Assembly: GCA_018830005.1 (NCBI GenBank)
Contig: JAHJTE010000001.1
Location: forward strand, 773,624 to 837,623
Source of the DNA: Candidatus Omnitrophota bacterium
Lineage (GTDB): Bacteria; Omnitrophota; Gorgyraeia; JAHJTE01
Reading direction: 5' to 3'
DNA: 64,000 nucleotides
Below, in pieces: positions 3,165-6,389 of this stretch. The notes below the pieces were generated by a model. It ran no database searches, was not told the origin of the DNA, and worked only from the letters and a program-made list of their open reading frames with translations. Both the position numbers and the translations under genes were made by a program. How positions within the stretch are numbered: the stretch's first letter is position 1; each line of letters begins with the position of its first letter.

Positions 3165-6100
3165 ATGATGAGAAAGAGCTCTATCTTAACTATTGGATTG
3201 TGTCTAACATTAATTTTTACTTTCGGCCTTATTTTTGACTCAAGCAGACAGGCAGAATCTGGGGATGTGCTAATTGAAAAAGATACTCTTTCTGTTCTTG
3301 AGCCCTCTATAAATGAGGCCTTGATAAGTGAGCAATATAGCATTGATATTCCCGAGCCTCAAGTTAAGGAAACAGCAGGAAAGATCTATTATCATATTGA
3401 GGATTTTGGTGTTAATGCAGTTTTGGCCTTGCCAGTCCTGCCACATAAAAAATATTATTTCCAAATCCCTCATAATGCTAAAGATATTACTCTAGAGCTT
3501 GTACAGACAGAATCACGCTCTTTAGGCACGATTTACAACCTTGGTGTGTTTGAAGGATTGGCTTCTATGGCTAATCCAGAATACGATTTGGTTGCAGCAA
3601 GAGAAAGATATACACTGGATACCTTTCCGGAAAACAATTTTAAGTATTTAGGGGAGCGTTATTTGAAAGGTCACCGTCTGCTTTGCGTTGGCATTAATCC
3701 ACTTGTCCAGAATTTAAGCGCTAACGAACTTATATTTCATAATAAATATATTATAAATATCCAATATCGTCTTGATGAAACCTTGAGGGATCTTGATACT
3801 GAGATGCGCACAAAGAAAAGTCCTGCCTTTGAGAAGACAGCAAAAGAAATAATCTATAATTATCAACAGATACAGCCGTTAGAGGCTCCTCTTGCAGCAG
3901 CCCAGACTGTTAGTCTTATACCTGTTGGTGATATGGAGATTAAATACGCGATTATTACCTTGCCTGGAAACGTGTCTGCAGTTCAGCCCTTAGCAGACTG
4001 GAAGACTAAGAAAGGAATTCCAGCAGAAGTTTATACTACAGATTGGATTAGCGCAAACTATCCTGCCACTGATTTGCAGAAAAGCATTAGATTATTTTTG
4101 ACAGAGCCCAATCCAAATTCACCTTATCAGAATTTTTATACGGCAAAATTTGACTGGTTGCTTATTGCTGGTGAGCAGGGAGCAGGTATGCCGGAAAATG
4201 ATCCGCCTCCAGAAGGAAGGAAATTGCCTAGCCGTTATGTTGGTGCTCCGGGTTATTATTGGTATAGTGGTGATGAGGATCAAGTTCCCGCAGATTATTA
4301 CTATGCAGATTGTGCTGATCCTACAGTTACTGGCTATGACTGGGATACTAATGACAATGGCATTTATGGTGAATTAACTGATAATATCCTCTGGATTCCT
4401 GATACATACGTGGGCAGGATTGCTTCAAACCTAGGGTATTGGTTGAACAAGGTTATCACTAATATTATTGATTATGAAAAGAATCCTGATGTTGGCACAT
4501 GGACAAAGTCAGCTTTATTAGGCGGAGCAAAGTTGGATGACTCAAACACTGGCGAGCCAGTCATGGAGGCTATTAAGGCAGATTTTCTGGATGGTTCAGG
4601 TTTTAGCACTGATCGACTCTACTATGTCAATCCTGGTTCTGGAGAGGGCTTTTTAGATGAGGCTAATTTTGCTTCTTTTGCTAATTCAGGAAGGACTATC
4701 ATAGAGTGGTTTTCACATGGCGGAAGTTTTCTTGCGATTAGCAACCCCGATGATATTGATCCTATATTTGTAACATATAATAGCCCAATACAAAATGGTA
4801 GTAAGCGCTCAGTGGTATATGCTGCAGCTTGTAGTAATGCTCATTTTGATTATTGGTGGGATTATCCTCCTATTGCTCATGCCCTATGCTTGAGTGATAT
4901 AGCATTAGAAGGCTATGCACCTACTACGAACGCTTGGGGTATTGCCTTTGTTGGAGCAGCAAGACCTATCTATTATTGGAAGCCTGTTACTCATCCTGCC
5001 TCACAAGGCTCAGCTCAGGGTGCACAATATCGTTTTAATGAGCAGATTTTTAGTTTAGGAAAATACAATGTGGGTCAGGCTCTATATGATATGAAGCTGG
5101 ATATGGTAACTGATTTTGATATGGGTGGTACTTTTGATCCAGACACTTCTGGTGCAGAAAGAAAAAATCTTTTTGCCATGAATCTTTTGGGTGATCCAGA
5201 GATGCCTATCTGGACTGATGAGCCGCAGCAATTTAATGTTGATTATCCTTCCGAAGTTTACGATACAGCCCATGATCACATAATTACAGTTGAGGACGGT
5301 ACAAGTTCTCCGGTTGAAGGAGCGCAGGTAACTTTATATAAGGAAGGCGATAGTTTTGGAACAGGCCTGACAGATGTAAACGGCGAGGTTACTTTTACTG
5401 TCTCAACAAGTTCTATCGGCACTATGGACCTTACAGTGACAAAGCATAATTTTGTTCCATTCACAGCTGTGATTGCTGTTGTTGTTGAGCCGCCTCCGAG
5501 GTATGATTTGACAATTAGTGCAGGCAGCGGCGGAAATACAAATCCAGCTCCAGGAGTTTATAATTATGAAGAGGGTTTTGAAGTTCCAGTAATAGCAATT
5601 GCAGATTCATGCTATTCATTCGACCATTGGGAGTTAGATGGCGTAGGCATTGGCTCAAAAAATCCCACTTCAGTTCTTATGGATGAAGATCACAACCTAC
5701 ATGCAGTATTTGTCCAAGATAGCTACAATTTGACAATAACCACAACCAGTGGCGGGACTACAAATCCAGTGCCAGACTCTTATGTATATACCTGTGGTTC
5801 CAATGTTCCACTAACTGCTGATCCAGATGCCAGTTATTTATTCGACCATTGGGAGTTAGATGGAATAGATATTGGTTCAGAAAATCCCACTTCAGTTCTT
5901 ATGGATGAAGACCACAACCTTCATGCTGTATTTGTTTTGAATGAATATGACTTAACTATTACTGCAAGCGAGGGTGGAACCACAGATCCAGCTGTTGGTA
6001 TTTATACTTATATAGCTGGTTCTGATGTTGCAGTAACTGCACTTGCCGATGAATATCATGCATTCGATCATTGGGAACTAGATGGTATAGATAGAGGCTC

Positions 6101-6389
6101 AGAAAATCCCATTTCAGTATCAATAGATGATGATCATGGCCTGCATGCGGTTTTTGAGTTGAAGTATATATGTGGCGATGCTAATACAGACGGTGGAGTT
6201 AATGTAGGAGATATTGTTTATCTTATTGACCACGTATTCAAGAACGGCCCTGCGCCAGATCCTCTTTTATTAGGAGACGCAAACAGTGATGGAGGGGTTA
6301 ATGTAGGAGATATTGTTTATCTTATTGACCACGTATTCAAGAACGGCCCTCCACCTTCTGCACAACCAGGCATATGTATGAGTCCTTGA
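3165..6389 (+). CDS. Secreted multidomain protein: clan-CD cysteine peptidase (gingipain/C25-like) core, three InlB-B-repeat-like modules, C-terminal dockerin-type repeat pair
   Basis: 1074-aa ORF with an N-terminal signal peptide (MMRKSSILTIGLCLTLIFTFGLIF). The central region has a His-Gly dyad (WFSHGGSF) followed by a hydrophobic block and Ala-Cys (VVYAAACSNAHFD), as in clan-CD peptidases. Three repeats of about 73 aa (..TISAGSGGNTNP..FDHWELDG..NPTSVLMDEDHNLHAVFV) resemble divergent InlB B-repeats. Two GDANxDGGVNVGDIVYLIDHVF repeats at the C-terminus match the dockerin type I Ca-binding motif. Confidence 0.6.
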   Translation: MMRKSSILTIGLCLTLIFTFGLIFDSSRQAESGDVLIEKDTLSVLEPSINEALISEQYSIDIPEPQVKETAGKIYYHIEDFGVNAVLALPVLPHKKYYFQIPHNAKDITLELVQTESRSLGTIYNLGVFEGLASMANPEYDLVAARERYTLDTFPENNFKYLGERYLKGHRLLCVGINPLVQNLSANELIFHNKYIINIQYRLDETLRDLDTEMRTKKSPAFEKTAKEIIYNYQQIQPLEAPLAAAQTVSLIPVGDMEIKYAIITLPGNVSAVQPLADWKTKKGIPAEVYTTDWISANYPATDLQKSIRLFLTEPNPNSPYQNFYTAKFDWLLIAGEQGAGMPENDPPPEGRKLPSRYVGAPGYYWYSGDEDQVPADYYYADCADPTVTGYDWDTNDNGIYGELTDNILWIPDTYVGRIASNLGYWLNKVITNIIDYEKNPDVGTWTKSALLGGAKLDDSNTGEPVMEAIKADFLDGSGFSTDRLYYVNPGSGEGFLDEANFASFANSGRTIIEWFSHGGSFLAISNPDDIDPIFVTYNSPIQNGSKRSVVYAAACSNAHFDYWWDYPPIAHALCLSDIALEGYAPTTNAWGIAFVGAARPIYYWKPVTHPASQGSAQGAQYRFNEQIFSLGKYNVGQALYDMKLDMVTDFDMGGTFDPDTSGAERKNLFAMNLLGDPEMPIWTDEPQQFNVDYPSEVYDTAHDHIITVEDGTSSPVEGAQVTLYKEGDSFGTGLTDVNGEVTFTVSTSSIGTMDLTVTKHNFVPFTAVIAVVVEPPPRYDLTISAGSGGNTNPAPGVYNYEEGFEVPVIAIADSCYSFDHWELDGVGIGSKNPTSVLMDEDHNLHAVFVQDSYNLTITTTSGGTTNPVPDSYVYTCGSNVPLTADPDASYLFDHWELDGIDIGSENPTSVLMDEDHNLHAVFVLNEYDLTITASEGGTTDPAVGIYTYIAGSDVAVTALADEYHAFDHWELDGIDRGSENPISVSIDDDHGLHAVFELKYICGDANTDGGVNVGDIVYLIDHVFKNGPAPDPLLLGDANSDGGVNVGDIVYLIDHVFKNGPPPSAQPGICMSP
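5502..6157 (+). repeat. Three tandem, near-identical ~219-nt intragenic repeats encoding the B-repeat modules
   Basis: The blocks ttcgaccattgggagttagatgg ... aaaatcccacttcagttcttatggatgaaga(t/c)cacaacct recur at about 5620, 5840 and 6060 with very high DNA identity. Confidence 0.8.
6198..6350 (+). repeat. Perfect 54-nt direct repeat (two copies) encoding the two dockerin Ca-binding segments
   Basis: gttaatgtaggagatattgtttatcttattgaccacgtattcaagaacggccct occurs at 6198-6251 and again at 6297-6350. Confidence 0.85.

Follow-up and report, generated by a model that had tools for sequence, protein, structure and literature searches.

A predicted gingipain-type C25 zymogen with three B-repeats and a C-terminal dockerin module in a Candidatus Omnitrophota genome

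To begin with, the combination of a C25 peptidase (clan CD, gingipain family) with a C-terminal dockerin is an already known, recurrent and published design (PMC8542988). 'Ca. Stygibacter', a member of the Cloacimonadota, encodes a cohesin scaffoldin of 3,755 aa alongside dockerin-bearing enzymes, one of which is a 'gingipain-like peptidase (Peptidase C25)' (PMC8542988). As for the Omnitrophota, their dockerins have been reported as repeated modules of giant proteins, which were read as non-cellulosomal adhesins (PMC10066038; bioRxiv 10.1101/2023.11.21.568195; bioRxiv 10.64898/2026.06.07.730766). Here, a peptidase gene was analysed that lies in a stretch of 64,000 nt from a Candidatus Omnitrophota bacterium (assembly GCA_018830005.1, contig JAHJTE010000001.1, positions 773,624 to 837,623 of the forward strand), hereafter the window. 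Its 1074-aa product appears in NCBI as 'hypothetical protein' [Candidatus Omnitrophota bacterium] (MBU2541069.1 and MFH1491781.1), the public copies of the identical protein being found on contigs of 388 kb and 848 kb. The analysis points, with good though not full confidence, to a secreted C25 pre-pro-enzyme tethered by a dockerin, and the protein adds to the published design an unannotated case, from a further phylum, that carries a stalk of three B-repeats.

The 1074-aa open reading frame (ORF) was confirmed, and all features with their coordinates are collected in Table 1. An earlier model-generated annotation made from the letters of the window (the sequence-only reading) had assigned the product to the clan-CD peptidases on the basis of a His-Gly ... 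Ala-Cys arrangement, and had left the choice between the families C25 and C11 to a Pfam search. That search returned Peptidase_C25 (PF01364) with 102.9 bits (gathering threshold, GA, 23), an E-value of 2.9e-29 and model positions 1-373 out of 374, while no match to Peptidase_C11 was found by Pfam in the 1074-aa protein. Moreover, a family profile (A1) built from 39 relatives of the peptidase matched the solved gingipain structures of Kgp (4rbm, E 5.5e-41) and RgpB (E 4.7e-40; 4ief_B and 1cvr, E~5e-40), the matches extending over the catalytic domain and the immunoglobulin superfamily-like (IgSF) domain. The putative catalytic residues His518 and Cys556 were invariant in all 39 aligned family members and fell on H211/C244 of RgpB and H444/C477 of Kgp in the HMMER profile alignment, with which an independent MAFFT alignment agreed. 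Furthermore, the AlphaFold2 (AF2) model had a predicted local distance difference test score (pLDDT) higher than 85 over aa 50-780, with low-confidence stretches corresponding to subfamily-specific insertions (e.g. aa 339-369). When this model was searched with Foldseek, RgpB was found (1cvr and 4ief_B, E 3e-26 to 5e-24) with template modelling scores (TM) of 0.81-0.83, followed by other PDB matches to Kgp, to the RgpB and Kgp prodomains and to PorU.

Two further domains of the gingipain type, which had been missed by the sequence-only reading, were identified on either side of the catalytic domain. Upstream of it, profile positions 26-214 matched the prodomains of Kgp (5mun_A, E 1.7e-18) and RgpB (4ief_A, E 2.9e-12), and this part of the model (pLDDT of about 90) was matched by Foldseek to 4ief_C/E/A/G (E~1e-8, TM 0.60-0.63) and also to 5mun, with an overall TM of 0.58-0.63; the single 1074-aa sequence gave no match to Pfam Propeptide_C25. 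Downstream of it, the alignment of the family profile with Kgp and RgpB continued over their IgSF domains, and an Ig-like domain was modelled with a pLDDT of about 96, with sub-threshold Pfam matches at aa 687-783 (PF13620, PF02369 and PF03785). Since residues ~50-245 correspond to a gingipain-type prodomain, the product would be a latent zymogen. Regarding the N-terminus, the strongest hydrophobic 19-mer begins at aa 6, a helix was modelled at residues 7-25, and the orthologues have N-termini equivalent to the first 32 residues, a region in which no lipobox was seen when the sequence was read by eye; a Sec-type signal peptide is therefore predicted there. Taken together, the profile matches and the predicted structure indicate a complete gingipain-type zymogen, comprising signal peptide, prodomain, catalytic domain and Ig-like domain.

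The substrate preference of this enzyme can be proposed with more caution. Of the S1 residues for which a mapping was tried (Asp163 and Glu152 of RgpB, Asp388 and Asp516 of Kgp), only the Arg-binding Asp163 of RgpB was placed on the same residue by both HMMER and MAFFT, namely Glu464; Asp516 of Kgp lies within an insertion that has no counterpart in the family profile, and its MAFFT column holds Ser613 of the query. The equivalence between Glu464 and Asp163 is tentative, and the enzyme may plausibly prefer basic residues at P1, though the support is weak. Two observations speak against this equivalence: most relatives have Ala at the position of Glu464 and a conserved Asp two residues earlier (here Thr462), and it comes from the sequence alignment of a loop/helix-cap region. 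A residue of the prodomain inhibitory loop was also read by eye against the RgpB prodomain, giving Ser and not Arg/Lys, and was dropped as unreliable.

The C-terminal part of the protein departs from the gingipains. It contains three tandem modules of the Flg_new_2 family (PF18998; 101.7 bits, GA 23.6, three stretches), which are divergent InlB B-repeats. Thus, the three InlB-B-repeat-like modules of the sequence-only reading were recovered, with a length of 74 aa instead of ~73 aa. At the DNA level they are direct tandem repeats of 222 nt each, with identities of 74% and 69%. They were poorly modelled by AF2 due to the thin alignment in this region, and presumably act as a stalk or spacer. 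After them, two 22-residue Ca-binding F-hand repeats were found (aa 1004-1025 and 1037-1058), consisting of D-x-N-x-D-G-x-V-N-x-x-D and then a helix. These are encoded by two 88-nt copies (6169-6256 and 6268-6355) that are 85% identical and give GDANTDGGVNVGDIVYLIDHVFKNGPAP (from aa 1004) and GDANSDGGVNVGDIVYLIDHVFKNGPPP (from aa 1037), the general form of both being GDAN(T/S)DGGVNVGDIVYLIDHVFKNGP(A/P)P. In the two Ca loops, D1004-A-N-T-D-G-G-V-N-V-G-D1015 and D1037-A-N-S-D-G-G-V-N-V-G-D1048, positions 1, 3, 5 and 9 are occupied by D or N, and position 12 by D.

The homologues of this module agree with its motif. A single-sequence search matched it to the Clostridium thermocellum dockerin 4dh2_B (E 5e-4), and a search with the dockerin only gave 26 candidates, mostly short fragments. 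Its closest relatives (50-70% identity) nearly all have PF00404, two of them being named 'dockerin type I repeat-containing protein', and the dockerin of an Omnitrophota orthologue (P0004) scored above the Pfam cut-off for this family (24.3 bits). Furthermore, the module was modelled by AF2 with 19 homologues at a pLDDT of 81, with helices at module residues 17-29 and 50-62, and 38 out of its 39 Foldseek matches in the PDB were dockerins (TM 0.7-0.84; root-mean-square deviation 1.5-2.4 Å). Consequently, the double Ca-binding repeat that had been called a dockerin is accepted as such on the grounds of motif, homologues and predicted fold. In the homologue alignment, the module is flanked by the conserved residues Cys1003 and Cys1071, which possibly form an extracytoplasmic disulfide clasp.

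Relatives of the peptidase were found in a wide range of phyla. Among the GTDB representatives, a set in which the source species is not included, 366 loci matched two short patterns, spanning Zixibacteria, Ignavibacteria, Planctomycetota, Gemmatimonadota, WOR-3, Eisenbacteria, Thermoplasmatota, Methanobacteriota and others, and the top matches were two Omnitrophota with 55-56% identity. The C-terminal modules vary among these relatives, including the C-terminal domain (CTD) of the type IX secretion system (T9SS) in many of them (PF18962), as well as FlgD-Ig, TSP3, dockerin and other domains, and such swapping fits a targeting or anchoring module. In particular, C25 peptidases with a dockerin were found in Zixibacteria, Ignavibacteria and Planctomycetota (Table 1). 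One Ignavibacteria locus (L009, 9821-19141) presented a C25-dockerin gene, an adjoining C11 clostripain-family peptidase with dockerin and an M28 peptidase whose tail is of the T9SS type; this array and that of Zixibacteria SM23_73_3 (L047) have the look of 'proteasome-like' dockerin enzyme sets in non-cellulolytic phyla. Given that C25 plus dockerin recurs across phyla and has been published (PMC8542988), the novelty of the architecture had been overrated by the sequence-only reading.

From these elements, the following course is proposed for the dockerin-tethered pre-pro-enzyme. The Sec signal peptide (aa 1-32) would take the protein across the inner membrane, and the prodomain, homologous to those of the gingipains, would hold the enzyme latent until cleaved off, as it does in them. 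The catalytic domain (aa 261-681) would then cut peptide bonds via the His518/Cys556 dyad, Glu464 giving a weak hint of a basic P1 preference by its alignment with the S1 residue Asp163 of Arg-gingipain. The Ig-like domain (687-775) and the three B-repeats (779-1000) would form a stalk ending in the dockerin (1003-1071), which takes the place of the T9SS CTD of many relatives and would act as a Ca2+-dependent tether to a partner, either some other surface ligand or a module of the cohesin type whose gene lies in another part of the genome. The cell surface would thus be where the protease is displayed, or from where it is targeted. Export through the outer membrane would probably proceed via a machine similar to the type II secretion system (T2SS) or type IV pilus (T4P), as genes of this kind flank the locus.

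Several observations weigh against this proposal. The signal peptide was judged by eye, and the match of the module to Dockerin_1 (PF00404), despite covering model positions 2-55 out of 57 with an E-value of 2.3e-4, reached 21.7 bits, 1.2 below the GA of 22.9. Moreover, no cohesin was found by Pfam scans and precomputed Pfam matches in the 64-kb window and 7 kb upstream, the annotation of the whole window agreeing here with the sequence-only reading, and no cohesin domain was found in ten large neighbour genes of the dockerin-bearing relatives (L009, L011, L019, L047 and L069). Those neighbours were instead further C25-dockerin genes, one C11-dockerin gene, one M28 and one M23 peptidase, and housekeeping genes. 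Furthermore, the dockerins of Omnitrophota have been described as non-cellulosomal and possibly adhesive (PMC10066038). A cohesin partner elsewhere in the genome, which the sequence-only reading had predicted, is neither supported nor excluded, and the protease-displaying cell-surface complex of that reading likewise stands as a prediction.

These same negatives sustain the strongest rival explanation, in which the protease is the same, and the dockerin lacks a cohesin partner and serves as a non-cellulosomal Ca2+-binding module for adhesion or stabilization, with no scaffoldin complex involved. The dockerin would bind the surface of a host, prey or substrate directly, or would merely stabilize the C-terminus. 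Besides the lack of cohesins in the window, its flank and the ten neighbours, a target-binding role fits the orthologues in which the dockerin is replaced by a domain of ~300 aa that is also carried by a type IV pilin. On the other hand, the module shows the full duplicated dockerin anatomy and a predicted fold that is superimposable on cohesin-bound dockerins, and C25-dockerin enzymes do co-occur with a cohesin scaffoldin in Cloacimonadota (PMC8542988). On balance, this explanation was given a little under an even chance.

The ~300-aa domain leads to the pilin genes found near the peptidase. Five Omnitrophota loci (L001, which is this genome, L002, L005, L085 and L087) keep the same succession of genes, namely a large pilin, a small pilin and the C25 peptidase; the rRNA operon comes after the peptidase gene in L001 and L002 at least, and probably also in L087. 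The large pilins have 505-569 aa (361 aa in L002) and present a prepilin motif (KG/FSSIE, the slash marking the cleavage point), a pilin domain, a Thr/Pro-rich linker and the ~300-aa C-terminal domain, the latter in four of the five loci and not in L002 (alignment A4). The small pilins have 158-179 aa and a weak ComP_DUS match. In L005 and L087, the ~300-aa domain recurs as the C-terminus of the peptidase orthologue (35-41% identity, E down to 1e-69), occupying the position held here by the B-repeats and the dockerin. Searches of Pfam, NCBIfam and the PDB sequences gave no match to this domain, which forms only 9 clusters in 5.8 billion proteins.

The conserved gene order suggests, at the level of synteny, a functional link between the pilins and the peptidase. 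A second rival explanation goes further and takes the peptidase as part of a pilus-associated apparatus, for which both the order kept in the five loci and the domain shared between the large pilin and the peptidase orthologues speak. However, this evidence is of synteny alone, neither a fold nor a function is known for the shared domain, and in L001, unlike the other loci, four unrelated minus-strand genes split the pilins from the peptidase, coding for a radical SAM protein, a GT2 glycosyltransferase, a 283-aa protein without assignment and a tetratricopeptide repeat (TPR) protein; such an apparatus was considered unlikely. Slightly less credence still was given to a fuller version, in which ultra-small host-dependent Omnitrophota would share a conserved three-gene cassette made of a large pilin with a ~300-aa head, a small pilin and a C25 protease, whose tag alternates between dockerin and pilin head, acting as a pilus-associated or co-targeted weapon that attaches to and digests the surface of host or prey. 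If this were true, the receptor of the dockerin might not be a canonical cohesin. Finally, a PorU-like C25 'sortase', which would cut the sorting signal from further secreted proteins and anchor these at the cell surface, was deemed very improbable, as PorU, being a C25 member, does match the family profile (6za2, E 1.8e-16) and the model (Foldseek E~3e-7), but the gingipains match far better (E~1e-40, TM 0.8, vs. a TM of 0.19 for PorU), a gingipain-type prodomain is present, neither T9SS components nor a T9SS CTD came to light in the protein or the window, and the sorting domain Por_Secre_tail (PF18962) had no Pfam match in this protein, which ends in a dockerin.

Returning to the dockerin-tethered zymogen as the preferred reading, the signals upstream of its gene were also inspected. 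The start codon differs between annotations, NCBI using the first ATG (1074 aa) and JGI the second (1073 aa). The spacing of the Shine-Dalgarno motif is better for the second ATG (3168), possibly the true start codon. The divergent TPR gene is separated from the peptidase gene by 437 nt, and in this gap a promoter candidate TTGACA-17-TATACT was found with 11 out of 12 consensus matches, being the top promoter-like site in positions 1-7000 of the window. The near-consensus match of the sequence-only reading was therefore reproduced, while the strong expression that had been drawn from it goes no further than this match. It should be added that promoter-like sites numbered 26 across the first 7 kb, not above those in shuffled sequences (20.7 ± 5.2). 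No Rfam match was found in the intergenic stretch 2700-3200.

Table 1. Coordinates of the peptidase gene and its domains, of neighbouring features and of related loci. Positions refer to the window unless a locus is named.
Feature	Residues	Position	Strand	Basis or remark
C25 peptidase gene		3165..6389	+	ORF, 1074 aa, TGA stop 6387-6389
Sec-type signal peptide (predicted)	1-32	3165..3260	+	by-eye reading: MMRK, 20-residue hydrophobic core, AES/G
Gingipain-type N-terminal prodomain	~50-245	3312..3899	+	profile match and Foldseek
Peptidase_C25 catalytic domain	261-681	3945..5207	+	PF01364
Glu464	464	4554-4556	+	at position of RgpB S1 residue Asp163 (tentative)
Catalytic His518 (putative)	518	4716-4718	+	His-Gly motif WFSH518G519
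Catalytic Cys556 (putative)	556	4830-4832	+	Ala-Cys motif AAAC556
Ig-like (IgSF / Peptidase_C25_C / CarboxypepD_reg-like) beta-sandwich	687-775	5223..5489	+	profile, weak Pfam
Three tandem Flg_new_2 (divergent InlB B-repeat) modules	779-852, 853-926, 927-1000	5499..6164	+	PF18998
Dockerin module	1003-1071	6171..6377	+	motif, homologues, predicted fold
Sigma-70-like promoter candidate TTGACA-17-TATACT		2990..3018	+	~147 nt upstream of start codon
Shine-Dalgarno AGGAG		3157..3161	+	3 nt to ATG 3165, 6 nt to ATG 3168
TPR-repeat protein gene		1-2727	-	961 aa, runs off window start
T2SS/T4P-like cluster		57450-63996		PilX_N-like, PilM/T2SSL-like (58171-59724), PilO/T2SSM-like, T2SSB-like
T2SS/T4P-like cluster, secretin		60745-62259
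T2SS/T4P-like cluster, T2SSE/MshE-type ATPase		62281-63996
Pilin cassette, L001		1440-3664 of L001		3.2-5.4 kb upstream of window start
Pilin cassette, L002		5879-7561 of L002
Pilin cassette, L005		7445-9669 of L005
Pilin cassette, L085		7467-9606 of L085
Pilin cassette, L087		6633-8746 of L087
Omnitrophota orthologue P0002				two B-repeats, no dockerin
Omnitrophota orthologue P0003				one B-repeat, TSP3 repeats, dockerin-like pair
Omnitrophota orthologue P0004				other modules and dockerin
Omnitrophota orthologues P0005-P0007				uncharacterised ~300-aa pilin-borne domain at C-terminus
Zixibacteria L011, L012, L019				C25 and C-terminal dockerin
Zixibacteria SM23_73_3, L047		9803-23167 of L047		four tandem genes, each Propeptide_C25, Peptidase_C25 and Dockerin_1, above Pfam cut-offs
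Ignavibacteria L009, L069				C25 and C-terminal dockerin
Planctomycetota L008, L024, L081				C25 and dockerin of different subtype

The remaining content of the window comprised an rRNA operon, operons for the synthesis of fatty acids, Leu, Arg and Lys, two GT39 glycosyltransferases, UvrA, ExbBD and, at its far end, the T2SS/T4P-like cluster, which by its genomic context is a candidate for the outer-membrane export route of the peptidase. As the TPR gene runs past the window start, ORF lists leave the first 2.7 kb seemingly empty; a large non-coding element in the 3.1 kb before the peptidase, where no ORF was apparent, was considered and rejected, since this minus-strand gene of 961 aa lies there. 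Downstream, no terminator was found directly after the peptidase stop codon; beyond two promoter-like sites, at 6490-6518 (TTGACA-17-TAAACT with TG) and 6573-6600, a hairpin that resembles a terminator and bears a T-run occupies 6626-6648; it ends 36 nt before the 5' end of the 16S gene and could be either the end of the peptidase transcript or part of the rRNA leader.

The 16S gene (6684-~8690) was found to be interrupted at 8099-8558, within the decoding-centre region, where CTTGTACACA runs up to 8098 and the gene continues with CCGCCCGTCA from 8559; motifs of its true 3' end appear at 8639-8654 and 8677-8688, and the Rfam run at gathering thresholds reported the 16S only as 6684-8146. The insert of ~460 nt has no ORF and gave sub-threshold Rfam matches to group II intron domains D1-D4 (8346-8413) and domain V/VI (8493-8558), the latter ending exactly at the 16S exon junction; it is probably a small ORF-less group II intron. 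Moreover, the 23S gene (9436-13345) harbours a group I intron at 11449-12365 (RF00028, 60.7 bits) that encodes a LAGLIDADG homing endonuclease of 168 aa (11859-12365), and two LAGLIDADG ORFs were found in the rRNA operon of the related Omnitrophota locus L002.

As for its meaning, a protein recorded as hypothetical can now be confidently annotated as a dockerin-tailed, secreted zymogen of the gingipain family C25. Proteases that bear a dockerin are widespread beyond the cellulolytic Firmicutes, being found in Omnitrophota, Zixibacteria, Ignavibacteria, Planctomycetota and Cloacimonadota, and this spread supports cohesin/dockerin-type tethering, or dockerin-mediated adhesion, as a general means of displaying hydrolases. 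Furthermore, since Omnitrophota are believed to live at the expense of other cells, a protease of the gingipain type, displayed at the surface and encoded beside pilin genes, would be a reasonable candidate effector, which is offered as a lead.

When compared with the known systems, the protein shares with the gingipains RgpB and Kgp of Porphyromonas gingivalis (MEROPS C25; 1cvr, 4ief, 4rbm and 5mun) the domain order signal peptide, prodomain, catalytic and IgSF domain, as well as the His/Cys dyad at identical alignment positions and the fold (TM 0.73-0.83), with only 15-17% identity. In contrast to them, it has no T9SS CTD and no haemagglutinin/adhesin domains, presenting three B-repeats and a dockerin in their place, and Glu464 at the S1 position of Asp163 in RgpB. 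With PorU, the T9SS sortase (6za2), the C25 catalytic fold is shared, but the match is much weaker, the architecture and role differ, and no T9SS context was seen. Regarding the type I dockerins of clostridial cellulosomes (4dh2_B, 4fl4, 2ccl_B and 5nrk), the duplicated 22-residue F-hand, the two-helix fold and the Ca ligands at positions 1, 3, 5, 9 and 12 are held in common at 21-38% identity, whereas the dockerin described here is flanked by a conserved Cys pair, each of its helices is followed by a Gly-Pro-x-Pro tail, and the organism is non-cellulolytic. The metagenome-assembled genomes of Cloacimonadota (Ca. Stygibacter, PMC8542988), Zixibacteria, Ignavibacteria and Planctomycetota likewise encode secreted gingipain-like C25 peptidases ending in a dockerin. 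Among these organisms, Stygibacter is the only one with a reported cohesin scaffoldin, and there is no such report for the bacterium described here. Apart from the different subtype of the Planctomycetota loci, their dockerins are of the same subtype as here ('...VYLINYLFKGGPxP'), the identity in the enzyme core is 25-28% and most of the enzymes are without the triple B-repeat stalk. Finally, the closest counterparts are the Omnitrophota orthologues P0002-P0007 (49-57% identity), which have the same core of prodomain, catalytic and Ig-like domains and the same place in the genome, downstream of two pilin genes and ahead of the rRNA operon, and differ from this protein in their C-terminal modules.

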